Source: an uncultured Actinomycetes bacterium
GTDB taxonomy: Bacteria > Actinomycetota > Thermoleophilia > UBA2241
Direction of reading: 5' to 3'
DNA: 64,000 nt
Assembly (NCBI GenBank): GCA_963709345.1
Contig: CAVPVX010000007.1
Span: 384,001 to 448,000 of the forward strand
This document shows positions 33,579 through 49,429 of this stretch, piece after piece. Each line of letters begins with the position of its first letter. Position 1 is the stretch's first letter. The notes beneath the pieces were generated by a model. The model made no database searches, was not told where the DNA came from, and was given only the letters and a program-made list of their open reading frames with translations. A program made the position numbers and the translations under genes.

Positions 33579-33656
33579 GCGCACGTAGCTCAGTTGGATT
33601 AGAGCGTCGGTCTACGGAACCGAAGGCCGCAGGTTCGAGTCCTGCCGTGCGCGCCA
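33579..33656 (+). tRNA. tRNA-Arg(ACG)
   Basis: GCGCACG/CGTGCGC stem, anticodon ACG, CCA. Confidence 0.95.
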
Positions 33657-33761
33657 GCTTCTTCTTCCCCTCCCCTCCGTCCCATCGACGCCCTTCGGCA
33701 CGGACTCCCTGCGGCCCGGGATGAAGCGCCGCCCCGTGTGCTCTACCATGGAGCGGGATCA

Positions 33762-34997
33762 ATGAGGCACGAGCTCACAGGCGGGAGACCCTCGACCATC
33801 GTGCGTGCGGCCGCGGCCGCGACGCTCGCGCTGTCGCTCGCGGCCGTCGCGACGGCCTGCGGCACCGCGGAGGTCATCAGCCGCCCCACGCCGCCACCCG
33901 TGCGCATCGGAGCGCTCTACAACCTCACCGGCTCGCAGGCCGTGCTCGACGCCCCATCGCTCGACGGCGCCCGGCTGGCGGTCGACCGCATCAATGCGAA
34001 CGGCGGCCTGCTCGGCCGTCGCGTCGAGCTGCTCGAGCGTGACGGCCAGACCCACACCGCCGACGTGCGCCGCGCCGCCCAAAGCCTGGTCGCGGCGGAC
34101 GTCTCCGCGATCATCGGGCTCTCCGACACCGAGCAGGTGCTGGCGGCCGCGCCCATCGCGGCGGCCGCCGGCATCCCCTTCGTGACCAGCGGAGCCACCT
34201 CCCCGCGCCTCCCGGCGCAGGTGCCGGACTGGCTGTTCCTCGCCTGCTTCGGCGACAACACCCAGGCGGCGGCCGGCGCCGAGTACGCCTACCGGCGGCT
34301 CGGGGCCCGCACCGCCGTCGTCGTCTACGACCGCGAGATGGAGTACACGCGGCTCCTGGCGCGCTACTTCTCGCAGACGTTCCGCTCCCTGGGCGGCAGC
34401 GTAGGCGTCTCGCGCGGGTTCGACGACGGCGACGAGGACGTCACAAGGCTGCTCGCCGCGCCCGGACGCTCCGGCGGCTCCCGCGACGCGGCCTCCGCGG
34501 ACATGGTGTTCCTTGCAGCAGGGCCGGAGGACGCCGGGCCGGTCGTGCGACGGCTGCGCGCCGCCGGCTACCGGCAGCCGATCATGGGCGGCGACAGCTT
34601 CGACAGCGTCGCGCTGGCGAAGGCCGCCAAGGCAACGGGCGGCGGCGTCTACTACACGACGCACGCGGCGCCCGGCCTCCCGTCGGCGAACGCCGCCATG
34701 CGGCGCTTCGATGCCTCGTACACCTCCGCCTACGGGCGGCCGCCGCAGAACGCCTTCGCCTGCCTCGGCTACGACGCCGTCGACCTCGTGGCGTCGGCCA
34801 TCGAGAGCGCCGGCTCGGTGCGGCCGGCGGCCGTGCGCGACGCCTTGCAGGCGACGCGGCGCTTTGTCGGCGTCAGCGGCACGCTGAGCTACGAGGACGA
34901 CGAACGCGTGCCGCGTAAACGCGTCACGGTCGTCCTCGTGGACCGGAGACCCGAAGTGGTGGCGCAGTTCACGCCACGCTTCGTGCCCGAGCCCTGA
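33762..34997 (+). CDS. ABC transporter substrate-binding lipoprotein (branched-chain amino acid type)
   Basis: Lipobox-like TAC; IGALYNLTG, INANGGLLGR, GYDAV. Confidence 0.85.
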   Translation: MRHELTGGRPSTIVRAAAAATLALSLAAVATACGTAEVISRPTPPPVRIGALYNLTGSQAVLDAPSLDGARLAVDRINANGGLLGRRVELLERDGQTHTADVRRAAQSLVAADVSAIIGLSDTEQVLAAAPIAAAAGIPFVTSGATSPRLPAQVPDWLFLACFGDNTQAAAGAEYAYRRLGARTAVVVYDREMEYTRLLARYFSQTFRSLGGSVGVSRGFDDGDEDVTRLLAAPGRSGGSRDAASADMVFLAAGPEDAGPVVRRLRAAGYRQPIMGGDSFDSVALAKAAKATGGGVYYTTHAAPGLPSANAAMRRFDASYTSAYGRPPQNAFACLGYDAVDLVASAIESAGSVRPAAVRDALQATRRFVGVSGTLSYEDDERVPRKRVTVVLVDRRPEVVAQFTPRFVPEP

Positions 34998-35044
34998 CGG
35001 CGCCGGCCGGGTGAGCCCCGGCCGGCCGGCGCAGCCCCGCCGGC

Positions 35045-35731
35045 TCAGTCGCGTCCGCCGCCGAACAACAGCAGGAAGTAGAGCAACTGCGAGATCGAGG
35101 CGAGGGCGCCGGCGACGTACGTCATGGCGGCAGCCGTCAGTGTCTGCCGCGCCGCCACGGCCTCACCCGCGTTGACCAGGCCGTACTCCCGGATGTTGGC
35201 CATGGCTCGCCGCGAGGCGTTGAACTCCACCGGCAGCGTGACGAGCTGGAAGATGATCACCGCTGCGAAGACGATCAGCGCCAGCTGGACGAGCCCGAAG
35301 GCGCCGAAGATCATGCCGGCTATGAGGATGAAGAACCAGGCCTGCGAGCCGAAGGCGGCGACCGGCCAGATCGCCGAACGAATGGCCATCGGCGTGTACG
35401 CCTTGGCGTGCTGGATGGCGTGCCCGACCTCGTGCGCGGCCACCGCCGTCGCCGCCACCGACCGCCCCGAGTAGACGGCCTCCGAGAGGAACACCCCGCG
35501 CGTGCGCGGGTCGTAGTGGTCGCTGAGCGGTCCGGCCTTGGACGGCTGGACGGGCACGTTCTGCAGCCCGTTGCGGTCAAGGATCTCGCGGGCGACGTCG
35601 GCGCCGCTCCTGCCGCTGGAGACCGGCACGCGGCTGTTCTTCGAGAACGTGCTGCGCAGCCAGCCTTGGACGGCGAGGCCGAGGATGAGCGGGATTCCGA
35701 AGAAGATCAGATACAGAGAAAGGCTGTTCAT
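35045..35731 (-). CDS. Membrane zinc metallopeptidase (YugP-like)
   Basis: LSDHYDP, AAHEVGHAIQH, TLPVEFNASRRA, AAAMTYVA. Confidence 0.9.
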   Translation of the reverse strand: MNSLSLYLIFFGIPLILGLAVQGWLRSTFSKNSRVPVSSGRSGADVAREILDRNGLQNVPVQPSKAGPLSDHYDPRTRGVFLSEAVYSGRSVAATAVAAHEVGHAIQHAKAYTPMAIRSAIWPVAAFGSQAWFFILIAGMIFGAFGLVQLALIVFAAVIIFQLVTLPVEFNASRRAMANIREYGLVNAGEAVAARQTLTAAAMTYVAGALASISQLLYFLLLFGGGRD

Positions 35732-35894
35732 CGATCGGGTCCACCTCTTGCGTGTAGAAGATCCGGTCAGAAACGTACAGCTACTCTACCCAGAACAGCC
35801 GGCGCCCGAGTCGCGGCGCTCGTGAAGAAGTGTGAAGACGGCGGCGCGGGTCGCCGGGGTTCTCACGCAGCCCGGATTCGGGCATGATGCGGCC

Positions 35895-36359
35895 ATGGGT
35901 GACCTGCACTTCCCGAGGCACGAGTACTACATGCGCCTGGCGCTGCGCGAGGCGCAGCGCGCGACCACGCACGGCGACGTCCCCATCGGCGCCGTCGTCG
36001 TGCTCGACGGCGAGGTCATCGCCGCGGCCGGCAACGAGCGCGAGCTGCGCAAGAGCCCCGTCGCTCACGCCGAGATCATCGCCATCGAGGAGGCCGCCGC
36101 CCGCATGGGCAGCTGGCGGCTCCTCAACACCGTCATCTACGTGACCCTCGAGCCCTGCCCCATGTGCGCCGGCGCCATCGTGCAGGCGCGCATCCCCCAC
36201 CTCGTCTACGGCGCCACCGACGAGAAGGCCGGCGCCGCCGGCACGCTGTACAACGTCTGCCAGGACGACCGGCTCAACCACTGCCTGGAGATCACCAGCG
36301 GCGTGCTCGCCGACGACTCGGCGGCGCTGCTGCGGCGGTTCTTCCAGGCGCGTCGCTAG
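35895..36359 (+). CDS. tadA: tRNA adenosine(34) deaminase
   Basis: VPIGAV, HAE, TLEPCPMCAGA, RLNH, FFQARR. Confidence 0.93.
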   Translation: MGDLHFPRHEYYMRLALREAQRATTHGDVPIGAVVVLDGEVIAAAGNERELRKSPVAHAEIIAIEEAAARMGSWRLLNTVIYVTLEPCPMCAGAIVQARIPHLVYGATDEKAGAAGTLYNVCQDDRLNHCLEITSGVLADDSAALLRRFFQARR

Positions 36360-36495
36360 CGCCGAGTACCACCTGCGCGCCTACATCGGCTCCGGTCGCG
36401 GCGACGGCAGGTTCCGCGCCGGCCGCCGTGAACATAGCTCAAGGTGCGCCGGCCGCGCACCGAGATGAGGTGGAGAGCCGAGCGAAGGGGGACGC

Positions 36496-37959
36496 ATGGC
36501 AAGCACCGAGGCGGCGCTGGACACGGCCGCACGACCGGCGAAGACGAAGGCCCTGCCCTCACCCAGGACGATCACCTGGCTGACGATGTGCTTCATGACG
36601 GTGTCGGCCGTGGCGAGCATCCGCAACACACCCAGCATGGCCGTCTACGGCCTCGCCTGCGTCTTCCTCTACGTGCTGCCGGCGCTCGTCTTTCTGCTGC
36701 CCACCTCGCTGATCGCTGCCGAGCTGGCCTCCGGCTGGGACGGCGGCGTCTACAACTGGGTCAGCGAAGGCATCGGGCCCCGGGCAGGGTTCATCGCCAT
36801 CTGGACCCAGTTCGCGATGACGCTCACCTACTACCCGAGCCTCCTCGCTTACGTCGCCAGCACGCTCGCCTACGTCTTCATGCCGAGCCTCGCCAGCAAC
36901 GGTGTGTACACGGCCGCGGTGATCATCGTCGTCTACTGGGTCTCGACGCTGGTCAGCATGCGCGGTGTGGGGCTCGTCGCCAAGCTCTCGAGCAGTTCGA
37001 TGCTCCTCGGCACCGCCATCCCCGGCGCGGCGCTCGCGCTCCTCGGCGTCATCTACCTGGTCCAGGGCAACCCGAGCGCCGCGCCCATCGCGGCCTCGGC
37101 GCTCCTCCCGCAGATCGCCGGCATCGCCGGCCTCGTGCTCATTGTCAACAACTTCCTGTCGTACGCGGGCATGGAAGTGAACGCCGTCCACGTCAAGAAC
37201 ATGGCGAACCCCGCCAAGGAGTTCCCCAAGGCCATGTTCCTGGCCATGGGGCTCGTCGTCGTGATCTTCGTGGTGCCCGCCCTGGCCATCAGCTGGGTCG
37301 TGCCGTCCAGCCAGCTCACGCTCACCGGCGGCGTCATGCAGGCCTTCACCGCCTTCTTCGACCACTTCCGCGTCTCGTGGCTGACCCCGATCCTCGGCAT
37401 CATGCTCATCACCGCGTCTCTCGGCGGCATGATGGCGTGGCTGGCCGGACCGTCCAAGGGTCTGCTGCTCATCGGGCGCAAGGAGGGCTACCTGCCACCG
37501 TTCTTCCAGAAGGTGAACCCGGCGGGGATCCAGGTGAACATCCTGTTCGCGCAGGGCGCGATCGTCACCGTGATCGCCCTGCTCTTCGCCCTGATCCCGA
37601 ACGTCTCGAGCGTCTACTGGATCTTCTCGGTGATCACGACGCAGGTGTACCTGATCATGTACTTCCTGATGTTCATCTCGGCGATGCGGCTCCGCAAGTC
37701 GCAGCCCGACCACCCGCGCGGCTACCGGGCGCCGATCCTGCCGGTGCTCGCCACGGTCGGCCTCGTGAGCGCCGCCGCGGCCTTCCTCATCGGCTTCGTG
37801 CCGTCCAGCCAGTTCGGCGGCGGCAGCACCGCCCTCTACATGCTGATCATCGGCGGGGGGCTCCTGGTGATCGGCCTGCTGATCCCGTTCCTGTTCCTGT
37901 GGCTGCGCAAGCCGGCCTGGAAGAACGCCGTGCCGGCGCCGGCCGACGATCAAGCATGA
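36496..37959 (+). CDS. APC family amino acid permease (GadC-like)
   Basis: 12 TMs; AELAS, GGVY.WV, YAGMEVNA, GPSKGL. Confidence 0.85.
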   Translation: MASTEAALDTAARPAKTKALPSPRTITWLTMCFMTVSAVASIRNTPSMAVYGLACVFLYVLPALVFLLPTSLIAAELASGWDGGVYNWVSEGIGPRAGFIAIWTQFAMTLTYYPSLLAYVASTLAYVFMPSLASNGVYTAAVIIVVYWVSTLVSMRGVGLVAKLSSSSMLLGTAIPGAALALLGVIYLVQGNPSAAPIAASALLPQIAGIAGLVLIVNNFLSYAGMEVNAVHVKNMANPAKEFPKAMFLAMGLVVVIFVVPALAISWVVPSSQLTLTGGVMQAFTAFFDHFRVSWLTPILGIMLITASLGGMMAWLAGPSKGLLLIGRKEGYLPPFFQKVNPAGIQVNILFAQGAIVTVIALLFALIPNVSSVYWIFSVITTQVYLIMYFLMFISAMRLRKSQPDHPRGYRAPILPVLATVGLVSAAAAFLIGFVPSSQFGGGSTALYMLIIGGGLLVIGLLIPFLFLWLRKPAWKNAVPAPADDQA

Positions 37960-37972
37960 GGGGGTGATCGCG

Positions 37973-38389
37973 ATGGAGGAGAAGTCACACAAGTGGGTCT
38001 ACGTCACGCTCATCGTCGTCATCGTCGCCCTGATGGTCGTGGGGGCCGTGCTCTACCGCGACCAGAAGCAGACCGAGGAGGCGCGTGCCAAGGCGAAGGA
38101 GTTCATCGCCAAGCTGAACGCCGCCGGGATGCAAGCCCCGAGCGAAGAGGCCGCCGTCCGGCTCTTCGGCGGCGACGGCGGCCCCTTCGCCCAAGACCCG
38201 GACAAGACCCTGCTGCAGTCGCAGTACGCCTGGCAGCTGGGCACGTCCGGGCCGGCGAGCCGGCCCGTGATCCTCGACCCGGACTTCGTCAAGGCGGCCG
38301 AGATCTTCGTCTCGGTCTACGCCCCGGACAAGCTGGCCGAGTTCCAGGAGTTCGTGAACGGCCTGGAGCTCGAAGAGACCACCGAATGA
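37973..38389 (+). CDS. Membrane-anchored hypothetical protein
   Basis: N-terminal TM; between permease and peptidase in an apparent operon. Confidence 0.65.
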   Translation: MEEKSHKWVYVTLIVVIVALMVVGAVLYRDQKQTEEARAKAKEFIAKLNAAGMQAPSEEAAVRLFGGDGGPFAQDPDKTLLQSQYAWQLGTSGPASRPVILDPDFVKAAEIFVSVYAPDKLAEFQEFVNGLELEETTE

Positions 38390-38402
38390 CGAGGAGGGCA
38401 CG

Positions 38403-39746
38403 ATGCCCGCTGACGACCTGAAGCAGAAGACCGGCGACCTGATGCCGCAGCTGCGGGCCGAGCTCGAGAAGCTCGTGCGCCTGCCCTCCGTGGCCTTCCC
38501 TGACTTCCCTGAAGAGCCGGTGACGCAGGCCGGTGCGGCAGTCGCGCAGCTCCTGAGAGATGCCGGCCTGCCCGAGGTGCGCATGGTAGACGTGGCGCGC
38601 GCGCCGCAGGCGGTGTTCGGGCAGCGGCCGGCGCAGCCGGGCGCGCCCACCGTCCTGCTCTACGCGCACTACGACGTGCAGCCGGCGGGTCCGGCCGAAG
38701 CCTGGGCGAGCCCGCCCTTCGAGCCCACCGAGCGCGCCGGTCGCCTCTACGGCCGCGGCGCGGCCGACGACAAGAGCGGCGTCGTCATGCACGCCGGCGC
38801 GATCCTCGCGCTCGGCCCGGACTGCCCCGTGGGCATCAAGGTCCTGATCGAGGGCCAGGAGGAGAACGGCCAGGGCGGCATGGAGGAATTCGCGAGGGCG
38901 AATGCCGAGTTGCTCGCCGCCGACGTGATCGTCATCGCCGACGTCGGCAACTACGCCCTCGGCGTGCCCACGCTGACCACGTCGCTGCGGGGCATGGCCG
39001 CCCTCGACGTCGAGGTCGAGACCCTCGAGGGCGCCGTGCACAGCGGCATGTTCGGCGGTCCCGGCCCGGATGCGCTCATCGCCCTCACGCGCATGATCGC
39101 GACGCTGCACGACGACGCCGGCAACGCGGTCGTCCCCGGTCTCGACATCATCGAATACGACGGCGCCGACTACGACGAGTCCGCCTACCGCACCGACGCC
39201 GGCGTGCTGCCCGGCGTGGATCTCATCGGCAGCGGCACCGTCGCCCAGCGGCTCTACGGCAAGCCGTCGATCAGCGTGATCGGCATCGACACTCCGGCCG
39301 TCGACGGCGCCGCCAACGCGCTGATCCCGAAGGCCCGGGCGCGCGTCAGCGTGCGCCTCGCGCCCGGGCAACAGCCAGACGACGCCCAGGCGGCCATGAA
39401 GATACACCTTGAGGCGGCCGCCCCGTGGCACGTCCGGGTCAAGGTCACGCCGCAAGGCACCGGCGAGGGCTTCCTGGCTGCGACCGGCGGGCCCGGCTAC
39501 GCCGCCGCCGGCCGCGCCCTGGAGGCGGCCTTCGGCAGGCCGGTCGTCCACTACGGCCAAGGCGGCTCGATCCCGCTGGTCGCCGCGTTCCTCGAGGGCC
39601 AGCCGGGCACCGAGATGATCCTCTGGGGCTGTGAAGAGCCCCAGTGCAGAATCCACGCCCCCGACGAGAGCGTCGACCTCGCCGAGCTCGAGCGCTGCGT
39701 GCTCGCCGAGACGCTTTTCATCGCGGGGTTGGCCGAGACAGCTTGA
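38403..39746 (+). CDS. M20 family dipeptidase
   Basis: YAHYDVQP, GRGAADDK, EGQEE, HSG.FGG, GGSIP, HAPDES. Confidence 0.9.
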   Translation: MPADDLKQKTGDLMPQLRAELEKLVRLPSVAFPDFPEEPVTQAGAAVAQLLRDAGLPEVRMVDVARAPQAVFGQRPAQPGAPTVLLYAHYDVQPAGPAEAWASPPFEPTERAGRLYGRGAADDKSGVVMHAGAILALGPDCPVGIKVLIEGQEENGQGGMEEFARANAELLAADVIVIADVGNYALGVPTLTTSLRGMAALDVEVETLEGAVHSGMFGGPGPDALIALTRMIATLHDDAGNAVVPGLDIIEYDGADYDESAYRTDAGVLPGVDLIGSGTVAQRLYGKPSISVIGIDTPAVDGAANALIPKARARVSVRLAPGQQPDDAQAAMKIHLEAAAPWHVRVKVTPQGTGEGFLAATGGPGYAAAGRALEAAFGRPVVHYGQGGSIPLVAAFLEGQPGTEMILWGCEEPQCRIHAPDESVDLAELERCVLAETLFIAGLAETA

Positions 39747-39817
39747 CCGGCAAGCGGAAAGACCGGCACGCCGCGCGCGACCGGCAGGCAGACCCGGGAG
39801 CTGCGGAGAAGCGACCG

Positions 39818-41359
39818 GTGGCGAGCGCCGCGGCCGCCGGCTCTCTGCGCTGGTGGTCGCTCGCCGGCCTGACGGCGGCGGCGGCGATCGTCTGGTTCGC
39901 CGCCGCCGGCATGCCCGTGGCGACCCCGCTGATCGCCGAGGACCTCGGCGGCTCGGTCACCGCTCTGCAGTGGGCGAACACCGCCTTCACGCTGATGTGC
40001 GGTGCGCTGGTCATCGCCGGCGGCCGCTTCGGCGACATCTTCGGCCGGCGGCGCGTGCTCGTCCTGGGGCTCGCCTTCTTCGCCGCCGCGTCGCTGATCG
40101 CAGCGCTGGCCCGCAGCCCGGAGATGCTGATCGCCGGCCGCGCCCTCATGGGCGTCGCCGCAGCCGCGATCCTCCCGGCGACGCTCGCCATCATCCCCAT
40201 CGAGTTCAGCGGCAAGGAGGAGGTGACGGCCTTCAGCGTGTGGATGGCCGTCGCGGGGGCGGGCCAGGCGCTGGCCCCCGCCGTCTCCGGCGCCCTGACC
40301 CAGGTCTTCGCCTGGCAGGCGATCTTCTGGGTCAACGTGCCGCTCTGCCTCGCCGCCTTCCTGCTCGTCCGGTCGACGACGCCGGAATCCCGCGACGAGG
40401 CCGCTCCGCACTCCATCGACGTGCCCGGCCTCCTGACGGTCGGCGGCGGGCTCATCGCGCTGATCTACGCGCTGAACGAGGGACCGGGCCGCGGATGGGC
40501 CTCTCCAGAGGTGCTGGGCGCGCTCGTGCTCGCCGCCGTGCTCCTGACCGCGTGCCTCCTCATCGAGCGCCATGTGCGCAACCCGCTGATCGACTTCGGC
40601 CTCTTCCGCCGCCGCTCCTTCAACGGCGCCCTCGCCGACAACTTCGTCTACAACTTCACGCTCGCCGGCACGATGTACGTGCTCGCACTGTATCTCGTGG
40701 AGGTGCGCCACTACGCCCCGTTCACCGCCGGTCTGCTCCTGCTGCCCTCCACCGTCGGGATGCTGCTGCTGCTACCCCTCGGCGCCCGGATGCAGTTGCG
40801 GACGGGTCCGCGCCTCCCCCTCGCCGCCGGCACGCTGATCATGGGCGCCGGCACCTTCATGGTGGGCTTTCTGACCACCTCGACGCCCTACTGGTGGTTC
40901 GCCGCCGGTCTGCTCATCCAGGGCATCGGCATCGGTCTCTTCTCCACGCCGCTCAGCGACACGGCGGTCGGCCTGGCGCCGCCGGCCGAGTCGGGAGCGG
41001 CTTCCGGCGTCTTCAAGATGAGCAGTATGGTCGGCGGGGCGTTCGGCATCGCCGTGCTCGCCGCACTCTACCGCGGGCTCCAGATCGCAATCGTGAAGGC
41101 CGACGTCGCCGCGGCCCACCTCACGCCGGCCCAGCAGTCGCAGGTGGACGACGCGTTCGGGAGCACCAGCCAGGCCGATGCGCTGTTCGCCAAGCTGCCA
41201 CCCGACGCTCAGACACGGGTCCTCGAAGCGGTGCGTGATGCCTTGGCCGGCGGCATCGGCGACTCGCTCAAGATCGCTGCCGTCTTCTCGCTGCTGGCGT
41301 TCGCCGCGGTGCTGTGGCTCGTGCCCAAGGGCATCCTGCACGCCGATCGCCACCGCTGA
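39818..41359 (+). CDS. MFS transporter (DHA2 type)
   Basis: GRFGDIFGRRR motif A; WQAIFWVNVP; about 14 TMs. Confidence 0.88.
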   Translation: MASAAAAGSLRWWSLAGLTAAAAIVWFAAAGMPVATPLIAEDLGGSVTALQWANTAFTLMCGALVIAGGRFGDIFGRRRVLVLGLAFFAAASLIAALARSPEMLIAGRALMGVAAAAILPATLAIIPIEFSGKEEVTAFSVWMAVAGAGQALAPAVSGALTQVFAWQAIFWVNVPLCLAAFLLVRSTTPESRDEAAPHSIDVPGLLTVGGGLIALIYALNEGPGRGWASPEVLGALVLAAVLLTACLLIERHVRNPLIDFGLFRRRSFNGALADNFVYNFTLAGTMYVLALYLVEVRHYAPFTAGLLLLPSTVGMLLLLPLGARMQLRTGPRLPLAAGTLIMGAGTFMVGFLTTSTPYWWFAAGLLIQGIGIGLFSTPLSDTAVGLAPPAESGAASGVFKMSSMVGGAFGIAVLAALYRGLQIAIVKADVAAAHLTPAQQSQVDDAFGSTSQADALFAKLPPDAQTRVLEAVRDALAGGIGDSLKIAAVFSLLAFAAVLWLVPKGILHADRHR

Positions 41360-41429
41360 GCGGTACCTCGCCGCCCGCGCCCTGTCGTATACTGTTCGTC
41401 CGCTTCGGGCGCACGCCCTGAGGCTTCGC

Positions 41430-41522
41430 GGAGAGGTGTCCGAGTTGGCTTAAGGAGCGCGACTGGAAATCGCGTGGGCGGGGTTACCTGCCTCGAGGGT
41501 TCGAATCCCTCCCTCTCCGCCA
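41430..41522 (+). tRNA. tRNA-Ser(GGA)
   Basis: GGAGAGG/CCTCTCC stem, anticodon GGA, long variable arm, CCA. Confidence 0.95.
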
Positions 41523-41615
41523 CATCCACCAGCGCAGATGCAGCGGCCCCCACGACGCTTCAGAAGTCCTTCACAACTCCCCCGTATCCTTGCCTGACGG
41601 TGATGTCGGCGACCC

Positions 41616-42857
41616 ATGGGTCGCCTCGCGAAGGGAGCGGGCGTGGCATGCGAACGAGCGAACGAGGCGGCGCAGCAGCGCGCGCGCTGGATACGCTGGG
41701 GTATCCTGGGCGGCGTCCTCGTCGCCGTCACGGCGATCGTCACCGCCCATCGAATGGCCGTGGGGCCCGGCAAGCCGCCCGGCGTCGACGCCCTCTGCCC
41801 GCTCGGCGGCGTGGAGACGCTCTACTCACTGCTGACCGGCGCCGGGTTCATCCGGCAGACGGCCGCCAGCGCCGTGATCCTGCTCGTCGGCATGCTGCTC
41901 ATGGCCGTCGTCTACCGGCGCTCCTTCTGCGGGCACCTGTGCCCGCTGGGAGCGCTGCAGGGCATCTTCGGGGCGCTCGGGCGCAAGCTGATCAAGCGTC
42001 GTCGGACGATCCCGCCAGCCGTCGACCGCGTCGCCCGCTGGCTCAAATACGTCGTGCTCGTCTTCTTCGCCGTCTGGTCGTGGCAGGCGGCCGCGCTCGT
42101 GATGCGGCCCTACGACCCGTGGGTGGCCTGGGCGCACCTCACATCCGCCACGCTGTTCACCGAGTTCGGGATCGGGCTCGCGGTGCTGGTCGTGTCGCTC
42201 GCCGGCTCGCTGGTCTACGAGCGCTTCTTCTGCAAGTACCTCTGCCCCACCGGCGCCTTGCTCGGGCTGCTGGCCGGGATCAGCCTGTTCCGTATCCGCC
42301 GCGACCCCGCAACCTGCATCGACTGCGGTCTCTGCGACCGCGCCTGCCCCATGAACGTCGACGTCGCCACCGCCGCGACCGTCACCTCGTCCGAGTGCAT
42401 CTCCTGCAACGAGTGCGTCAACGTGTGTCCCGCCGCCGGCGCCCTCGAGGTCGTCACCGCCGGCAGCCGCAAGCCCTCGACCGTTCTGGCCGCCGGCATC
42501 GTGGTGGCGCTGATGGCCGGCATCATCGGCCTGACCACCCTGACCGGCGACTTCGAGTGGCAGAAGGAGAGAAACGGCGAAGGTCGCGGCGCAGGGCACG
42601 CCGGCCAGGGGGAAGGCCAAGGTCAGGGCGAGGGCCAGGGCCAGGGCGAGGGCCAGGGCGGAAGCGAGTCGGCCGTCAAGGGCTGGATGTCCTTCGCCGA
42701 CATCGCCGCGATGACGGGCATACCCCTCGCGGACTTCAGCGCCGAGTGGGGCGTGCCGGACGCGGACCTCGGCCTGCCGATGAAGGACATCAAGGACAGG
42801 TACGGCTTCACGCCGGAGGCCGTCCGCGCCTGGGTGGAGGAACGCCTTACGGAGTGA
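41616..42857 (+). CDS. Membrane 4Fe-4S binding protein (NapH/MauN-like)
   Basis: CPLG, FCGHLCP, FCKYLCP, two CxxCxxCxxxCP motifs; GQGE repeat linker; start may be GTG 41643. Confidence 0.85.
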   Translation: MGRLAKGAGVACERANEAAQQRARWIRWGILGGVLVAVTAIVTAHRMAVGPGKPPGVDALCPLGGVETLYSLLTGAGFIRQTAASAVILLVGMLLMAVVYRRSFCGHLCPLGALQGIFGALGRKLIKRRRTIPPAVDRVARWLKYVVLVFFAVWSWQAAALVMRPYDPWVAWAHLTSATLFTEFGIGLAVLVVSLAGSLVYERFFCKYLCPTGALLGLLAGISLFRIRRDPATCIDCGLCDRACPMNVDVATAATVTSSECISCNECVNVCPAAGALEVVTAGSRKPSTVLAAGIVVALMAGIIGLTTLTGDFEWQKERNGEGRGAGHAGQGEGQGQGEGQGQGEGQGGSESAVKGWMSFADIAAMTGIPLADFSAEWGVPDADLGLPMKDIKDRYGFTPEAVRAWVEERLTE

Positions 42858-43024
42858 GGCGGCGGAGCGGTTGCATGCGGCGGTCTCGGCAATCCTTGAT
42901 CCGGCCAACCGGGCTCGGAGGCGCATGTTCAAGTCCCGGGGCGGCGCCGTCGGCACGGTAGAGCGGCTGCGCTTACTCGGGTAGTGTAGAGACCGACCCC
43001 TTGAGACTACCCCAGGAGTGGACC

Positions 43025-43444
43025 GTGACTACTCTCATGAACGTCGTCGCCGTCGTTCTCGTCGTGCTGGTCGTCCTCTTGACGGTGCCGAAGCTGATGA
43101 TGGCATCCAAGGCGCGGAGGATGAGGGGCAAGCCGGCGCCGGCGCCGCACAAAGCATCCGCCAAGAGGATCAAGTCGGGCGCCCGGACGATCCTGTACTT
43201 CCACACGACGACGTGCCGTGCGTGCAAGACCCAGGACCCCATCATGCGCAAGGTCCAGAAGCGCTATCCGGATGCCGTGTTCAAGATCGACACGGCGGCG
43301 AACCGGCCGGCCGCGTCCGCATACGGCGTCATGGGTGTGCCCTATCTCGCATTCATCGAGGGCGGGAAGCTGGTCTCGGCGCGATCGGGCGTGCAGCGGG
43401 AGGACGCGCTCGTCGGCTTTCTCTCCGGCAAGGGGAAGGCATAG
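43025..43444 (+). CDS. Thioredoxin-like protein with N-terminal membrane anchor
   Basis: YFHTTTCRACK (CxxC), YGVMGVP. Confidence 0.8.
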   Translation: MTTLMNVVAVVLVVLVVLLTVPKLMMASKARRMRGKPAPAPHKASAKRIKSGARTILYFHTTTCRACKTQDPIMRKVQKRYPDAVFKIDTAANRPAASAYGVMGVPYLAFIEGGKLVSARSGVQREDALVGFLSGKGKA

Positions 43445-43491
43445 GAGCGGTCCACCCGGCGTGCTGCGACCGAGGTCCGCATCGCGTGCGG

Positions 43492-43625
43492 CGACATCGC
43501 CGCGATGACCGGCTTCCCCTCGCCGACTTCGGCCTGCTGATGACGGACAACTGGAACCGGTACGGCTTCACGCGAGAGGTCGACCGCGCCTGGGTGGAGG
43601 AGCGCATGGCGGAGTGAGGCGGCGG
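43492..43625 (+). pseudogene. Decayed copy of the 3' end of the 4Fe-4S gene (42698-42866)
   Basis: Shared cgacatcgccgcgatgac, ggtacggcttcacgc, ccgcgcctgggtggagga and ggagtgaggcggcgg, with indels. Confidence 0.8.
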
Positions 43626-43690
43626 GGGGCCGCGTGCTACACTACGCGTCCGCGGCCCCTGCCTCGCGCGCACGGCGGCCGCCGCCTCGC

Positions 43691-43785
<95 letters not shown>

Positions 43786-44002
43786 GCAGGTAAAAGACCC
43801 GCCCGAGCTACTCCTGAGCGGGTCTATCTTCAGCCTGAGCCGGAGCCATCTGGAGCCATCTCCAGAGGTGACGGCGGCCGACGGTGGTCGCCAGACGCGC
43901 TGCGAACGGGCGCCGCTATGGGTCCGCGAGTCATAGAGTTTCGGCACTGGTGCCTGATCTCGCCCTGCTTTCGATGAAGCTCGACAGGCCGATCGCTGGC
44001 TC

Positions 44003-45067
44003 GTGCCGCAGCCCTTCCGTCCCCCGCCACCGCCACACTGGTGCGCCGCCCAGCGACCCACGGAGCACCGCAGGTCAGAGCTGCTCACGCAGATGCGCGC
44101 CGGCCTCACGGCTCGCCACTACAGCCGCCGCACCGAAGAGGTCTACTGCCACTGGGTGCGCCGGTACGTGCGCTTCCACCAGCTGCGCCACCCGGCGGAG
44201 CTCGGCGACGAGGAGATCAACGCCTTCCTCACGCACCTCGCCGTCACCGAGCACGTCAGCGCCTCGACCCAGACGCAGGCGCTCAGCGCGCTGCTCTTCC
44301 TCTACCGCCAGGTGCTCGGGCGCGAGGTCGGCGAGCTCGACCTGGTGCGCGCGAACAAGCCGCGGCACCTGCCGGTCGTGCTCACGCGCGAGGAGGTGCG
44401 CCGGCTGCTCGCTGGGCTCGAGGGCGACCCGCGGCTGGTGGCCGCGCTGCTCTACGGCTCCGGCCTGCGCCTCATGGAGGCGCTGCGCCTGCGCGTCTGC
44501 GACCTCGAGCCGGGGCGCGGCGAGCTCCTCGTGCGCAGCGGCAAGGGCGGCCGCGACCGCGTCACCATGCTGCCACGCTCGCTGCAGCCGGCCCTCGAAG
44601 CCCAGCTCGCGCGAGGGCGCGCCCTGCACGAACGCGATCTCGCCGCGGGCTGGGGGCGCGTCGAGCTCCCCGGAGCCCTGGCGCGCAAGTACCCCAAGGC
44701 GCCCTGGGAGTGGCGCTGGCAGTGGGTCTTCCCGCAGCAGCGCCGCTGGCGCAACCGGGAGAACGGCGAGGAGGGGCGCCACCACATCCACGAGACCATC
44801 GTGCAGCGCGCCGTGACCGCCGCCGTGCGCCGCGCCGAGATCGACAAGCACGCCACCTGCCACACCCTGCGCCACTCGTTCGCGACCCACCTGCTCGAGG
44901 ACGGCTACGACATCCGCACGATCCAGGAGTTGCTCGGCCACAAGGACGTGCGCACGACGATGATCTACGCGCACGTGCTGAACCGTGGCGGCCAGGGCGT
45001 GCGCAGCCCGATCGACGACCTCGTCGGGGAAAGGCGGTCTGCCTTTCGCGCACCTTCAGGCTCGTGA
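44003..45067 (+). CDS. intI: Integron integrase (tyrosine recombinase)
   Basis: RHYSRRTEEVY, SASTQTQALSALLFLY, LPVVLT, LYGSGLR, GKGGRDR, IntI-specific insertion LPGALARKYP..WQWVFP, RHH, HTLRHSFATHLL, LLGHKDV.TT.IY; start uncertain. Confidence 0.95.
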   Translation: MPQPFRPPPPPHWCAAQRPTEHRRSELLTQMRAGLTARHYSRRTEEVYCHWVRRYVRFHQLRHPAELGDEEINAFLTHLAVTEHVSASTQTQALSALLFLYRQVLGREVGELDLVRANKPRHLPVVLTREEVRRLLAGLEGDPRLVAALLYGSGLRLMEALRLRVCDLEPGRGELLVRSGKGGRDRVTMLPRSLQPALEAQLARGRALHERDLAAGWGRVELPGALARKYPKAPWEWRWQWVFPQQRRWRNRENGEEGRHHIHETIVQRAVTAAVRRAEIDKHATCHTLRHSFATHLLEDGYDIRTIQELLGHKDVRTTMIYAHVLNRGGQGVRSPIDDLVGERRSAFRAPSGS

Positions 45068-45090
45068 TAGCGTCATATACAGAAAGGGAG

Positions 45091-45135
45091 AGTCTGTGTC
45101 GATGACAAACGCAGACTGTCTAATAGTAGTTAGCC
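45091..45135 (+). other. Candidate attI site
   Basis: Core GTTAGCC 45129-45135 preceded by L-like TGTCTAA; exact inverse of the first cassette's R''. Confidence 0.7.
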
Positions 45136-45148
45136 CGAACTCCGGGGT

Positions 45149-45778
45149 GTGATTGCTGTGTACCTCGCCAAACCTGAGATCCCGACCGGCCAGGGAGTCT
45201 TGGTCTTGCACTCGTGGTGGGGCTTGAACGGGTTCTTCCGCGACCTGTGCGACCGGCTGGCATCTGACGGCTTCGTCGCACTCGCGGCGGACCTCTACGA
45301 CGGCAAGACCGCGAGCACGATCGGGGACGCAAAGGCCCTACGTGCCGAGGCCGGCGCCTCCAGGAGGGAGTCCGCCTACCGCTACCTCATCCGCATGATC
45401 GGCGAGCTCGAGTCGCAGGCCTCTGGAGACGTTGCCCTGCTCGGCTTCTCGATGGGTGGACACTGGGCCTACTGGCTCTCTCGGCGCCCTGAGCTTCCCA
45501 TCTCCAAGACGGCGACGTTCTACGCCGCACGCGACGGGGACTACTCGACAAGCCGCTCGGCCTTTCTTGCTCACTTCGCCGAGACCGATGAATGGGTGTC
45601 AGACGCCGGCGTGCTGAGACTCGAGCGTAGCTTGGAGAAGGCGGGTCGCGAGCATACGTTCCATACCTACGAAGGCACCGGGCACTGGTTCTTCGAGTCC
45701 GACAGGCCGGAGTACGACCCTGAGGCCGCGGCGCTCGCATGGGAGAGGACGGTTGCCTTCCTGCGGCGGTCGGGCTAA
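45149..45778 (+). CDS. Dienelactone hydrolase family protein (cassette 1)
   Basis: LHSWWGLN, ADLYDG, GFSMGG, YEGTGHWF, AW.RT..FL; stop TAA lies inside R''. Confidence 0.9.
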   Translation: MIAVYLAKPEIPTGQGVLVLHSWWGLNGFFRDLCDRLASDGFVALAADLYDGKTASTIGDAKALRAEAGASRRESAYRYLIRMIGELESQASGDVALLGFSMGGHWAYWLSRRPELPISKTATFYAARDGDYSTSRSAFLAHFAETDEWVSDAGVLRLERSLEKAGREHTFHTYEGTGHWFFESDRPEYDPEAAALAWERTVAFLRRSG

Positions 45779-45859
45779 CAAGCACATCAACCTGATGCGC
45801 CGAAGGGCCGAGATGGACTGGGAGCGCACTTCGCACAGGTTATGTGCCGAGCGTTCGGC
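45773..45859 (+). repeat. attC site 1
   Basis: R'' GGCTAAC, R' GTTCGGC; stem GCACAT-C-AACCTG-A-TGCG / CGCA-CAGGTT-ATGTGC with unpaired bases. Confidence 0.92.
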
Positions 45860-45933
45860 GTAGCAGGTTCGCAGCGTCTTCCGTAGGCGAGGCGGGGTAG
45901 AATCCTTGTCGTGATGTCTCAGGGATGTGAGTG

Positions 45934-46146
45934 ATGTCGGTCGTGTTTCGCATCGAGCTCGAGCGCGAGGCTGACGGGCGCTGGATCGCCGAGGTGGTCG
46001 AGTTGCCCGGAGTGCTCGCCTACGGCTCGAGCCAGGACGACGCCATCGCTCGCGTGCAGGCCCTTGCCCTGCGCGTCGTCGCCGACCGGCTCGAGAACGA
46101 AGAGGCCGGCCGCGAGTACCTGAACATCTCCTTTGCCGCTGCGTGA
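45934..46146 (+). CDS. hicB: HicB family antitoxin (cassette 2)
   Basis: EREADGRWIAEV.ELPGVLAYG; TAGAAT -10 at 45898. Confidence 0.88.
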   Translation: MSVVFRIELEREADGRWIAEVVELPGVLAYGSSQDDAIARVQALALRVVADRLENEEAGREYLNISFAAA

Positions 46147-46355
46147 GCGACTGGCCCAGCACCCGCACCAAGCTCGTTCTCGCGGCTCTCCTGCGCATCG
46201 GCTGGACGGTCGAGCGCCAGACCGGTTCCCACAAGATCCTCTCGCGCCCCGGCTGGCCCAACCTCGTCTTCGCCTTCCACGACCGCGAGGAGATCGGCCC
46301 GCGGATGCTCGCGCGCATCGCCAAGCACAGCGGCCTGAGGCCCGAGGACCTGTGA
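46143..46355 (+). CDS. hicA: HicA family toxin (cassette 2)
   Basis: LLRIGW..RQTGSH, FAFHD.EEIGP.ML.RI; GTGA overlap with hicB. Confidence 0.9.
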   Translation: MSDWPSTRTKLVLAALLRIGWTVERQTGSHKILSRPGWPNLVFAFHDREEIGPRMLARIAKHSGLRPEDL

Positions 46356-46365
46356 TGTTGGGCAC

Positions 46366-46455
46366 GCCGAACAAGCGGATCAAGCTGGCTCGCCGCGGCG
46401 CCGGCGACCTCACGGGAGGTCGGCGCGCTCGCAGCTTATCGGCGGTGCGTTGAGC
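46366..46455 (+). repeat. attC site 2
   Basis: R'' GCCGAAC, R' GTTGAGC; stem GCGGAT-C-AAGCTG / CAGCTT-ATCGGC. Confidence 0.9.
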
Positions 46456-46482
46456 GTACTCGTTGCACGTAGTCGGGGGGCA

Positions 46483-46857
46483 ATGATGAACCAGGCGCTG
46501 CTCTATGTTGCATCCGGCCTCACCGGCATATGGGGTGTGGCGCATCTGTTCGCCACCAAAGGGGCGGTTGCGGACTTCGGCGATATCATGCCTGACAACC
46601 GTCGCATCATCACCATGGAATGGATCGCTGAGGGCGTAGCCCTGATCTCCACGGCCGCGTTCGTTGCAGTGGCAGCCGCGATCCAGCCGGGATCCGACGT
46701 CTCGTCGGCGGTGTTCGCCGTGGCAATCGGCACCCTCACCACACTCGCCGTTGTCTCAATGTTTACGGGATTCCGCGTCCACTTCTTGCCCTATCGGCTC
46801 TGCCCGTTCATCTTCGGGCTGTCGGCGGTACTGATTGCATGGGGCGCGTGGTTCTAG
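46483..46857 (+). CDS. Hypothetical four-TM membrane protein (cassette 3)
   Basis: WGVAHLF.T, RRIITMEWI.EG; hydrophobic; bounded by attC2 and attC3. Confidence 0.8.
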   Translation: MMNQALLYVASGLTGIWGVAHLFATKGAVADFGDIMPDNRRIITMEWIAEGVALISTAAFVAVAAAIQPGSDVSSAVFAVAIGTLTTLAVVSMFTGFRVHFLPYRLCPFIFGLSAVLIAWGAWF

Positions 46858-46883
46858 GAGTCTAGATCCGCCGCTCGGGAGAC

Positions 46884-46987
46884 GCCCAACAAGCGTTTCG
46901 ACACTGACAAGACTCGGCGTTCGAGCTACGCTCGACCAGACGAGGCCAAACGCCTCGCCCTGCAGGTCAAACGCAAACACGTTAGGC
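46884..46987 (+). repeat. attC site 3
   Basis: R'' GCCCAAC, R' GTTAGGC; stem GCGTTT-C-GAC-A-CTG / CAG-GTC-AAACGC. Confidence 0.88.
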
Positions 46988-47048
46988 ACAACCCTGCCAC
47001 CCTCACTGCGGGCCTCGCCCCTTGCCGTCGCGTCGTGGCGCATCCGGA

Positions 47049-47109
47049 TGTAAAGCGTCCTTGACTTCTCTCAATCCCGTGTGCATTATGGTGTCAAGCG
47101 AGCTTTACA
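47049..47109 (+). promoter_or_regulatory. Sigma70-type promoter with two operator-like palindromes
   Basis: TTGACT(47061)-17 nt-CATTAT(47084); TGTAAAG-N4-CTTGACT and TGTCAAG-N4-CTTTACA. Confidence 0.75.
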
Positions 47110-47122
47110 CCAAGGGGTTTCG

Positions 47123-47323
47123 ATGCAGAACCGTGTGCGTGAGCTTCGTCTGGTCGCCAACCTTCGGCAGGAGGATCTCGCCGAACGCGTTGGTGTCAGC
47201 CGCCAGACGATCATCTCCATAGAGGGCGGGCGCTACAACCCATCGCTCGAGCTCGCTTGGAAGCTGTCCCGGACTCTGTCGGTGTCCATCGAGGATCTGT
47301 TCCAGTTTGGGGAGGTGAAGTAG
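47123..47323 (+). CDS. Xre-family HTH transcriptional regulator (cassette 4)
   Basis: MQNRVRELR, QEDLAERVGVSRQTIISIEGGRYNPSLELA. Confidence 0.92.
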   Translation: MQNRVRELRLVANLRQEDLAERVGVSRQTIISIEGGRYNPSLELAWKLSRTLSVSIEDLFQFGEVK

Positions 47324-47704
47324 GTGCGAACTGTGCGCAACACCATGCTCCTTGCGATTGCGCTGGCCGCTCCATACGTCTTGGTCGGTCTTCTCTCGAA
47401 TGGCCCCTACGCGTCTCGCGTTCTCCAAGGCGGGCTGGTCCTCTTGATAGTGGTTGCCGCGGTCTCGGTTTGGATGTGGCGGCAAGGGCCACGCATCGAC
47501 CGCGAGCAAGATGAGCGGGAGCGGCTGATCCTCTATCGCTCCGCGAGCTTCACGCTCTTGGTAACGGCCGTTGCACTGCAGACCTACTGGGCTATGCGCT
47601 TTGCCGCCGATGGGAACGCTGGAGACGATGTCTTCTGGCTGCTCGTGGTCTTCTGGGGCACCTTCGGGGGTTCGTACGCGTACAACCGGATTCGCGTCAG
47701 GTGA
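47324..47704 (+). CDS. Membrane protein, DUF2178-like (cassette 4)
   Basis: Four TMs with central DERE..I motif typical of Xre-associated membrane proteins. Confidence 0.7.
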   Translation: MRTVRNTMLLAIALAAPYVLVGLLSNGPYASRVLQGGLVLLIVVAAVSVWMWRQGPRIDREQDERERLILYRSASFTLLVTAVALQTYWAMRFAADGNAGDDVFWLLVVFWGTFGGSYAYNRIRVR

Positions 47705-47716
47705 GGGGTGAATGTG

Positions 47717-47923
47717 ATGTCTGAGAAGCGCTCGGACGCAGACGAGTCGAAGTCAGCTGACTCGATGGGCAACTGGATCGGCATCGGGGCGGGCTTGGGA
47801 GTCGCCATTGGGGTGATCTACGGCAACATTGGCCTTGGTACGGCGCTCGGGGCATGCCTCGGGGCGATCATCGGCGCAGCGGAACAGGCACGCGTCTCGA
47901 AGCGCGATCCGGGGGACAAGTAG
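47717..47923 (+). CDS. Small glycine-zipper membrane protein (cassette 4)
   Basis: GIGAGLGVAIG..GLG.ALGA.LGA repeats; GAGGGG RBS. Confidence 0.7.
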   Translation: MSEKRSDADESKSADSMGNWIGIGAGLGVAIGVIYGNIGLGTALGACLGAIIGAAEQARVSKRDPGDK

Positions 47924-47936
47924 TAGTGACTGGTGT

Positions 47937-47996
47937 GCCTGACAATGAGATCAACCCGACTCACTTCGCTCGCGGGTTATCTCAAACACGTTAGCC
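47937..47996 (+). repeat. attC site 4 (short; R'' AAC changed to GAC)
   Basis: R'' GCCTGAC, R' GTTAGCC; stem TGAGAT-C-AACCCG / CGGGTT-ATCTCA. Confidence 0.85.
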
Positions 47997-48002
47997 GGAC
48001 GC

Positions 48003-48638
48003 TCAACCAGCCGAAGCGGTCCTCGTCCTCACCCAGGCGGCAAGTTGCTCTTCGCTCAGCTCACCAGCAGCCAGGCCCAGCATCACCGTGACGACCTCGC
48101 CCTCGTCTGCCTCCAGTTCCACTCCGTTGAGCTCCAGGAACACGGCCATGGTGATGAAGGCGATGCGCTTGTTGCCGTCTTGGAACAGATGCCCGGTCAC
48201 GAGGCCGTGACCGTGGGCTGCCGCCAGCTCGGCGAGGTCGGCGTCAGGCCGGTAGGCTCTGCGCTGCAGGGGCCGGGCCAAGGCCGCCTCGAGCCCGTGC
48301 TCGTTGCGCAGGCCGGGCATGCCGCCTTGCTCGCGGATGAGGTCGAACTGCACCGCCTCCACGACCAGGCGGTCGATCCAGCGCGGCGCTTCGCCTCGCG
48401 GCTCCACCGGCTGCTTGGCCAGTTCTCGCAGGGCGCTGCGGTAGCGCCCTGCCACCTTGCCGGCGATGGCGAGCGCCTCCTCGACCGCAGGGTCGTAGGG
48501 CGTGAGCAGGATGCCGCGCTCGGTCTCGGCGGCGAGCACCGTGTCGCCCGCCGCGAGGTGCAGGCGCTCGGCCATGTCCTTGGGGAGCGTGGCGCTGATC
48601 GAGCCGCCGGCCTGGCGGAGCTTCAGTCCGCGGGTCAT
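48003..48638 (-). CDS. AbrB/MazE-type antitoxin fused in frame to Doc/Fic toxin (cassette 5, truncated)
   Basis: LRQAGGSISATLPK..LTPYDP..ALRELAK then Doc-like GG.PGLR..LEAALARP..HLFQDGNKR. Confidence 0.8.
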   Translation of the reverse strand: MTRGLKLRQAGGSISATLPKDMAERLHLAAGDTVLAAETERGILLTPYDPAVEEALAIAGKVAGRYRSALRELAKQPVEPRGEAPRWIDRLVVEAVQFDLIREQGGMPGLRNEHGLEAALARPLQRRAYRPDADLAELAAAHGHGLVTGHLFQDGNKRIAFITMAVFLELNGVELEADEGEVVTVMLGLAAGELSEEQLAAWVRTRTASAG

Positions 48639-49194
48639 GGTGCTGAACAGGCTCAACATGATCATCGGCGCCTTCTTCAGCGAGTGCGGCACCGACCTCC
48701 TCGGACGCATCGCGCAGCTGGACTCGCGACTCGGTGAGGTGAGAGGCGACCTCGTGGCGACGTCCGCGTGGCGGCCCGCTGCCTGCGCGCGCGCCAAACG
48801 CGCCTTTCGTGCGCACGCACCGGTCATCGATCTGAGTGCCGACGACCTTACCGGCCTGCGTGACCGCCTCGACGGCGAGAAGTCCTACCTGCTCGGTCTG
48901 ATCGGCAACCAGGCGTTGCTGGAGCACGAGACGTTCACGGACCTGCTTTGGGCCGTGACCCACGTGGCCGAGGAGCTGGAGGCGCGGGACGACCTCGAGA
49001 CACTGCCGGCGGCCGATGCCGAACACCTCGCCGGCGACGTCGAACGAGTCTACACGCTGCTCGGCGTGCAGTGGCTCGACTACCTGCGCCACCTGCAGAC
49101 GCAGTACCCGTTCCTGTTCTCGTTGGCCGTGCGGACCGATCCGCTGGACCCCGATGCCAGCGTGACCGTCTCCGGTGAGGCCGCACTCCCGTAG
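48637..49194 (+). pseudogene. Probably 5'-truncated hypothetical protein
   Basis: LNMIIGAFFSE.G, LLEHETFTDLLWAV.H..EEL, YPFLFSLAVR; begins abruptly on the antitoxin ATG with no RBS or promoter space. Confidence 0.55.
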
Positions 49195-49206: not shown

Positions 49207-49429
49207 GTGGTCGGGCTGCTCACACTGCTCGTGATCCCGCCGAAAGCGCCGATGCCCGCCAAGTCGGCGAAGATGAAGGGCAAGCCGGCAGGCCGCGTCC
49301 GCCTACGGCGTCATGGGTGTGCCCTATCTCGCAGTCATCGAGGGCGGGAAGCTCGTCTCGGCGACGTCCGGCGTACGGCGCGAAGCGACGATCACGGGCT
49401 TCCCGCCCGGGAGCGCTCACGGCGCCTGA
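49207..49429 (+). pseudogene. Internally deleted copy of the thioredoxin-like gene at 43025-43444
   Basis: 42 of 43 nt identical to 43309-43351; upstream KMKGKPA matches RMRGKPA; the CxxC region is missing. Confidence 0.8.

Follow-up and report, generated by a model that had tools for sequence, protein, structure and literature searches.

The reverse arrangement of the integron, in which the integrase gene intI is transcribed towards the attI site and the cassette array, is known from Treponema (reportedly Coleman 2004) and is described in PMC3607928, PMC4909258 and PMC4889954. The last of these (Cury et al.) finds the inverted-integrase group to be paraphyletic, so common descent does not follow from a common orientation. 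Actinobacteria (Actinomycetota) are reported as lacking complete integrons in PMC4889954 (Cury 2016), PMC9024848 and PMC13323075. The absence was already remarked upon in 2008 (PMC2426708), and it has been treated as a puzzle, perhaps due to an unknown barrier in Gram-positive lineages. Here we analyze a 64,000-nucleotide stretch (the window) of contig CAVPVX010000007.1, from the genome of an uncultured bacterium of the actinobacterial class Thermoleophilia, in which an intI gene is followed on the same strand by an attI site and an array of gene cassettes.

We conclude with high confidence that the window holds a genuine chromosomal integron of the inverted-integrase type, with intI transcribed towards attI and the array, and the original prediction of such an element, made from the DNA letters, is supported. 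It is an ordinary integron in kind, with a known minority architecture; the lineage is what is new to the literature searched. That search, conducted outside subscription journals and supplements, returned no chromosomal integrons of Thermoleophilia and no native actinobacterial integron clade. The claim that such platforms are hardly described holds for the literature but not for genome databases, where the element is common and such proteins are already annotated automatically as integron integrases.

We take the mechanism from established integron biology. IntI would recombine the folded bottom strand of a cassette attC with the double-stranded attI at G|TT, new cassettes would be inserted beside attI, and recombination between two attCs would excise cassettes as circles. 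In the array of the window, a deletion or rearrangement has fused the far end to a truncated host gene.

Like the inverted-integrase integrons of Treponema denticola, the element is chromosomal and carries cassettes mostly of unknown function together with toxin-antitoxin pairs. Unlike that type example, its host belongs to the Actinomycetota rather than the Spirochaetota, and the likeness is one of arrangement. As in the sedentary integrons of Vibrio and Xanthomonas, the attC repeats (87-90 nt) are homogeneous at the species level, arrays can be long in relatives, some cassettes encode toxin-antitoxin pairs, and most members of the lineage carry the element. However, its orientation is reversed, its position is unconserved (11 contexts among 32 loci), and the array of its genome is small (four attCs in the window) and split into several intI-less clusters. 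The recombination machinery and small array are also those of the mobile integrons (classes 1-5), unlike which it has no transposon or plasmid context, with no mobility genes between 43.7 and 48.7 kb, and no resistance cassettes, and its integrase scores 345 bits against the class-1-type equivalog NF011946, under the cut-off of 435. VchIntIA, the Vibrio IntI4 whose structure is PDB 2A3V, aligns along the full length of the enzyme, including the IntI-specific domain and the catalytic residues; compared with VchIntIA, the actinobacterial enzyme is a relative in sequence only and is known from its sequence alone.

The integrase and its recombination sites

The maximal open reading frame (ORF) of intI extends from a GTG at 44003 to 45067, with the ATG at 44093 as the likely start. 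The resulting intact gene (44093..45067, plus strand), identified from the ORF listing, profile search and structure alignment, encodes a protein of 324 amino acids that is the same as database protein P0001. It scored 463.9 bits against the 'integron integrase' profile TIGR02249, for which the cut-off is 265, and its scores against Xer profiles were all far under their cut-offs. The host genome (G000; 3.11 Mb in 11 contigs; labels in G, L and C denote genomes, loci and contigs) has eight tyrosine-recombinase matches, and only the IntI of the window exceeds the TIGR02249 cut-off. Residues 4-308 aligned to 2A3V with an E value of 5.6e-92, whereas XerA aligned in two pieces only, to residues 6-170 and 235-296; because that alignment skips them, we assign residues of about 171-234 (about 60 residues) to the IntI-specific insert. 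From the 2A3V alignment, the catalytic residues are R126, K151, H257, R260, H283 and Y292 in the 324-residue numbering, each aligned with the corresponding VchIntIA column. IntI is of full length and retains all six of them; it is probably active at present.

The attI region occupies 45068..45135 on the plus strand. Its core, GTTAGCC at 45129-45135, lies 62 bp beyond the intI stop codon on the same strand, with the predicted crossover between G45129 and T45130. A motif of the form CTGTCTAAT-N5-GTTAG precedes the first cassette in five related integrons (L035, L037, L038, L072 and L118), and the CTGTCTAAT motif is also present in a second copy within the host genome (L146). Homology of cassette 1 to locus L028 begins exactly at G45129, and the attI core complements the R'' box of attC1 in seven of seven positions. 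We therefore read GTTAGCC as the attI core, at which insertion would occur at G|TT and to which IntI is predicted to bind.

Four attCs were identified on the plus strand, at 45773-45859 (attC1), 46366-46455 (attC2), 46884-46987 (attC3) and 47937-47996 (attC4), using R1, a covariance model whose 83 seed attCs all come from other genomes, the window contributing none. Run over the 64-kb window with filters off, R1 returned these four with E values of 4.9e-19, 5.8e-19, 1.5e-9 and 1.2e-8, while the fifth-best match had an E value of 0.086. The seeds were 83 of 124 matches found in the loci of relatives by a regular-expression and pairing scanner, after off-consensus matches, opposite-strand matches and five whole loci had been dropped. 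The scanner was rejected as stand-alone proof, with 7 matches across the window against 4.0 in shuffles, a difference that is not significant, and was used for the seed harvest only. An Rfam scan of the window returned tRNAs only, Rfam being without an attC family.

The boxes of attC sites follow the consensus RYYYAAC for R'' and GTTRRRY for R'. The four sites found here have one architecture in common when read by eye. An R'' box of 7 nt, whose last bases are AAC (in attC4, GAC), is followed by the dinucleotide AA, an L'' box of 6 nt and an extra C, which on the bottom strand is a bulged (extrahelical) G. Then come three to six more pairs, a variable loop, the L' box complementary to L'', a spacer of 5-6 nt and an R' box of the form GTTNRGC. 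Bottom-strand DNA folds of attC3 and attC4 reproduced the R stem, the unpaired spacer and the bulged G, and the minimum-energy folds of attC1 and attC2 were messier. In the alignment of the 83 seeds, the proposed helices pair in 93.5% of cells compared with 26-35% when the partner is slid, both-sided changes occur in 11 of 19 pairs, and the covariation score was reached by none of 500 shuffles. Because the seeds had been pre-selected for pairing, these values are biased towards the proposed structure and partly circular.

Most of what had been claimed for this part of the locus was borne out. The full IntI with its catalytic residues and specific insert was recovered (463.9 bits with TIGR02249, and the 2A3V alignment), and grouping with XerC/D or phage integrases is excluded by the profile scores, the structure alignment and the tree. 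The attI-like core does follow IntI on its strand, with a motif kept in relatives, and the attC-like hairpins between the cassettes pass R1 in four of four cases. The integrase is also as GC-rich as the host (intI 0.72-0.76, flanks 0.68-0.72) and the cassettes are more AT-rich (GC 0.60-0.66), with a dip to 0.60-0.66 visible at 45.0-48.0 kb within the interval of 43.7-48.7 kb.

Cassettes and their exchange

Cassette 1 (45130..45853, plus strand) carries an ORF of the dienelactone-hydrolase family (DLH; 45149-45778) and attC1. Cassette 2 (45854..46449, plus strand) encodes a HicB-like protein (45931-46146) and a HicA toxin (46143-46355), followed by attC2. Cassette 3 (46450..46981, plus strand) encodes a small membrane protein of no known family, whose ORF ends at 46857, and carries attC3. 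Cassette 4 (46982..47990, plus strand), which ends with attC4, encodes an XRE-type helix-turn-helix regulator (to 47323), a membrane protein of 126 amino acids (47324-47704) and a Gly-zipper-like protein of 71 amino acids (47708-47923). Five cassettes and four attCs had been predicted; four cassettes are indeed complete with an attC, but the fifth (47991..48638, minus strand) is truncated and has none. It is inverted relative to the array and lacks its distal ~146 bp, including the attC, ending at 48638, the phd start codon. A Phd-type antitoxin and a Doc toxin form one fused ORF of 211 amino acids (48003-48638, minus strand), because the phd stop codon has been lost: in the window it is a Gln codon, and it is present both in the copy on contig C2 of the host genome and in L038. 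In L038 and in the complete C2 copy, the Phd-Doc cassette ends in its own attC.

A scan for promoters and terminators found one sigma-70-like site, inside cassette 4, and no terminators. The site, at 47061-47089, lies between inverted-repeat arms at 47049-47065 and 47093-47109, overlapping the first. Because the 62-bp gap between intI and attI has no promoter-like or terminator-like site, the first cassettes are probably co-transcribed with intI.

Cassettes recur in other genomes at other array positions. The DLH cassette (45129-45900) matches positions 11468-12241 of L028 in genome G019 at 86.7%, and the HicAB cassette (45852-46381) matches positions 9110-9639 of the same locus at 88.9%, there lying upstream of the DLH cassette; HicAB is also present in L072 at 90%. 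Cassette 3 is similar to sequences in L022 and L028 (about 70%), and the cassette that comes first in L038 is matched at 86% by the Phd-Doc stretch (47990-48638). Homology to the arrays of other genomes breaks at the predicted G|TT crossover points. A metagenome contig of 548 nt from run X4 (depth 42.5, 93% identical) joins 45852 to 45129 within the shared GTT. Such a joint between an attC1-like end and the first base of cassette 1 would be expected either from an excised DLH circle or from another order of cassettes in the array. In L038, overlapping ORFs of 298 amino acids (10589-11485) and 101 amino acids (11482-11787) follow the second cassette on the minus strand (10589-11787), a pair that resembles an IS3-type transposase by eye only.

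Past excision should leave a signature in the array. In an excised circle, the R'' box of the attC complements an R' box formed with the first bases of the cassette itself, so the R'' of site n would complement the R' of site n-1. We examined 190 sites, comprising 186 of the 188 R1 matches of relatives (two partial matches were dropped) and the four of the window. R'' was the perfect reverse complement of the preceding R' in 109 of 171 adjacent pairs, as against 16 of 171 for a match with its own R' and 13.8 ± 3.5 for random partners (maximum 25 in 1000 draws). The signatures of the window are 7/7 (attI to attC1), 7/7, 6/7 and 6/7. This test is independent of the site selection used for the seeds.

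Outside the window, R1 found 17 more attCs in the host genome. Contig C2 has eight of them in succession, C7 has four (near 765-772 kb), C5 and C11 have two each, and C6 has one. The eight form an intI-less array (CALIN) at C2:215713-220740 (L144 3214-8241, minus strand). Its first cassette is a complete Phd-Doc, 87% identical to the truncated copy in the window, in which phd and doc are distinct genes and an attC is present. Paralogous composites were observed at about 767-772.5 kb of C7 (L145 4482-10021) and about 10.2-13.2 kb of C5 (L146 714-3651), each with the last ~50 nt of intI and a copy of attI, followed by two to three cassettes. The attI copies are 91% identical to that of the window over 125 nt (C5) and 83% identical over 58 nt (C7). 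Both remnants adjoin a divergent phage-type tyrosine integrase, which is degraded on C5 and intact on C7 (433 amino acids at ~767 kb; PF00589 at 1.8e-22). The C7 composite lies near a tRNA-Arg(CCT), with another attC across that tRNA. The window has the only intact intI of the genome, whose product could act in trans on the intI-less arrays and on the attI remnants.

Distribution and descent in the Actinomycetota

Of the 54 genomes of the genus, 29 encode an IntI above the cut-off and three others have fragments. Such an IntI is also encoded in 53 of 401 genomes drawn evenly from the class and in 24 of 401 genomes of the phylum, the last count including the host genome and two unpublished genomes (G482 and G543). 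By family within the class, matches at E≤1e-40 were found in 43 of 79 genomes of f1, 14 of 61 of f4 and 1 of 24 of f6, and in none of f2, f3, f5 and f7. The closest IntI-encoding public contigs are from Thermoleophilia or Actinomycetota (72-88% identity), followed by contigs of Acidobacteriota, Planctomycetota and Pseudomonadota (53-69%).

The orientation is uniform across the actinobacterial loci. In relatives, R1 gave 188 matches (E≤1e-3), spread over 18 of 27 loci, and every match lies on the strand of intI and downstream of it. The other nine loci are either of the 'empty-site' kind or on contigs that stop close to intI. In other actinobacterial families, all 24 matches, in six of eight loci, are likewise downstream on the strand of intI. 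In 18 loci from other phyla, the scanner found one upstream match (L061), four downstream matches (L065) and otherwise essentially nothing; in the nearest non-actinobacterial integrons, contig ends close to intI are only a weak hint on orientation. Arrays in relatives can be long, with 21 full-length attCs within 12 kb in L026 and one more cut by the end of the locus. In five congeners (G001, G008, G012, G018 and G019), intI is split, frameshifted or fragmentary. The loci with broken intI keep 18 (L027, G001), 14 (L028, G019), 11 (L029, G012), 9 (L030, G008) and 2 (L031, G018) full-length attCs.

In a maximum-likelihood tree, 26 rows from Actinomycetota (24 distinct loci) and one 2.4-kb contig labeled 'Eubacteriales' formed a clade with an SH-aLRT support of 98; the tree was rooted on the very distant Xer proteins of the host genome, which makes the root unreliable. 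In this quick tree, built without Treponema IntIs, the IntIs of Planctomycetota are close, yet form a separate clade. The IntI of the window belongs to a clade largely confined to the Actinomycetota and common in the genus and family of the host within the Thermoleophilia.

The actinobacterial identity of the host, as originally proposed, agrees with the closest IntI contigs, which are of Thermoleophilia or Actinomycetota and include the same genus. The orientation of intI towards the array likewise extends from the window to 188 of 188 matches in relatives and 24 of 24 in other actinobacterial families. The proposal of a resident platform was right in part: by the genus, class and phylum counts the integron is resident across the lineage, but in this genome it is not at an ancestral site.

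The value of the locus extends beyond its own coordinates to the prevalence in genus, class and phylum, the uniform reverse orientation, the circle signature, the fragmented arrays, the attI remnants and the unconserved position. The window and dozens of related arrays show that the gap in the literature partly reflects the sampling of cultured, complete genomes. If confirmed experimentally, the system would offer a Gram-positive, high-GC setting in which to test the single-stranded folding of attC and IntI catalysis against Proteobacteria, a new family of attCs by which to trace where the cassettes of soil and sediment come from, and a case where cassette expression may be coupled to transcription of intI. 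We hold it an even call that the Actinomycetota are not integron-poor, possessing instead a largely phylum-specific clade of reverse integrons in uncultured classes (~6% of sampled species, more than half of the family of the host, homogeneous attCs of ~87-90 nt), whose platforms, in contrast to classical sedentary integrons, are unusually restless within genomes and move by an undescribed relocation route. Such a route is suggested by the many contexts, the duplicated attI, the intI stumps and the association with tRNAs and phage-type integrases.

Chromosomal context and alternative explanations

The backbone gene directly upstream of the integron is tRNA-Ser(CGA) (43691..43782, plus strand; detected by ARAGORN and by the Rfam tRNA model at 58.5 bits), which is orthologous in relatives. 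The left boundary falls within 43845..43880, backbone homology to the closest relatives, G047 and G064, stopping at 43864 and 43873, respectively, and the window has a single occurrence of a 29-nt motif (43845-43873). The spacer upstream of intI (43874..44092, plus strand) is homologous only to a degenerate second integron of G021, and all other integrons match the window only from about 43993-44111 onwards. On the right, backbone homology to relatives resumes at 48641, in a gene (48641..49194, plus strand) that encodes 250 amino acids in G016 and here lacks its first 71 codons; because this gene is 5'-truncated, the end of the array is a deletion or rearrangement junction. The missing N-terminal codons were not found elsewhere in the host genome, although their absence is not proven thereby, and the gene matched no Pfam family. 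In relatives without an integron here (G016, G023, G044, G008 and G005), 1-7 kb of variable filling separates the tRNA from the right-hand gene, with approximate slot sizes of 1.1 (G016), 1.7 (G023), 5.1 (G008) and 7.2 kb (G005). The integron at this locus is not ancestral and fills a variable slot after tRNA-Ser(CGA).

No tRNA adjoins intI in 20 loci of relatives and 15 further loci, except for the degenerate integron of G021. That remnant (L118, C7:447000-453000, about 3032-3645, minus strand) consists of a tRNA-Ser(TGA), a spacer homologous to 43874-44092 and the first ~220 nt of intI, a stub fused directly to the attI core TAGTAG|TTAGGC, with no attC within 3 kb. In G064 (L119), a piece of about 60 nt from the 3' half of a tRNA-Ser(TGA) lies about 40 nt past the 29-nt motif, downstream of tRNA-Ser(CGA). 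This fragment suggests a past integration or recombination between two tRNA-Ser loci. A 195-amino-acid ORF found upstream of intI in G064 has two copies in the host genome and matched no Pfam family.

Several findings weigh against the main conclusion. No Pc-like promoter was found around intI and attI by a sigma-70-type scan, which leaves actinobacterial promoter types uncovered, nor was a terminator found there, and a search for LexA boxes, with 3.06 matches expected in the window, gave only one, which falls inside a tRNA, and was rejected. The attC calls were made with the self-built R1 rather than IntegronFinder's own attC model, and R1 found no attC in L150 and L156, two of the eight extra loci. 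Two actinobacterial IntIs of f20 fall outside the main clade, beside Planctomycetota. The closest relatives lack an integron at tRNA-Ser(CGA), and the location is unconserved: clustering by the 1.2 kb upstream of intI (36 loci, reduced to 32 by removing four same-genome duplicates) gave 11 upstream contexts among the 32 distinct loci of the genus, the largest comprising 11 genomes; the nearest IntI relatives of the window (G064 and G013) have one context in common, and the window is not in it. In 24 sequencing runs, in each of which the share of sampled words was at most 0.09, the junctions at 43.87 and 48.64 kb are without read support. Among short contigs of relatives from runs X1-X4, none bridges either junction, and the parts they leave uncovered are evidence neither way. 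Finally, the short array, its truncated end and the lost phd stop are all compatible with decay.

Decay leads to the alternative that the locus is a frozen relic, whose parts look complete but whose platform no longer captures or excises cassettes here. The short array ends in a truncated cassette joined to a host gene that is itself truncated, Phd-Doc has no phd stop codon, intI is broken in the five congeners named above, and no recognizable SOS box or Pc promoter was found. We nevertheless doubt this explanation: the intI of the window is complete and keeps the whole catalytic set of six residues, the circle signatures of the two cassettes closest to attI are perfect (7/7), and the attI copy on C5 (91% over 125 nt), together with cassettes shared at 87-90% with other species, points to turnover on a recent evolutionary scale.

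A second alternative is that the integron is the cargo of, or was relocated by, a tRNA-targeting integrative mobile element, so that it would reflect recent transfer within the lineage rather than long residence at the locus. Its position directly downstream of a tRNA, in a slot of variable size among relatives (1.1-7.2 kb), would fit, as would the homologous spacer and intI remnant beside a different tRNA-Ser (TGA) in G021, the 3' tRNA-Ser(TGA) fragment right after the same 29-nt motif in G064, the two attI remnants of the host genome that adjoin a phage-type tyrosine integrase (one of them near tRNA-Arg(CCT)) and the 11 upstream contexts among 32 loci. However, ORF and profile annotation revealed no phage-type integrase, transposase or other mobility gene between 43783 and 48640, the segment is not flanked by a direct repeat of the tRNA 3' end, and the right end is a deletion junction rather than an att site. 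The nearest IntI relatives belong to the same genus, and the GC content of intI matches that of the host. We consider such a transfer unlikely.

A chimeric join of the integron into the contig by the assembler is highly improbable. In its favor, the genome derives from a metagenome assembly, no other genome examined has this locus, and diverged paralogues (attI copy 91%, Phd-Doc copy 87%) could in principle mislead an assembler. Against it, the contig is 777 kb long with backbone synteny on both sides, the junctions lie in unique sequence without a shared repeat, the junction of tRNA-Ser, spacer and intI is seen independently in G021, and paralogues of 87-91% are too diverged and too short to collapse.

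Two further features of the surrounding chromosome were observed. Within the 15 kb from 28576 to 43782, one strand carries four tRNA-Ser genes (TGA, GCT, GGA and CGA), and relatives differ in their duplications of the thioredoxin-like and ferredoxin-like genes that separate the last two. Downstream of the integron, the variable region includes a 105-nt stretch (49279-49383) that shares 88% identity with part of the thioredoxin-like gene (43297-43401) and looks like a pseudogene remnant.

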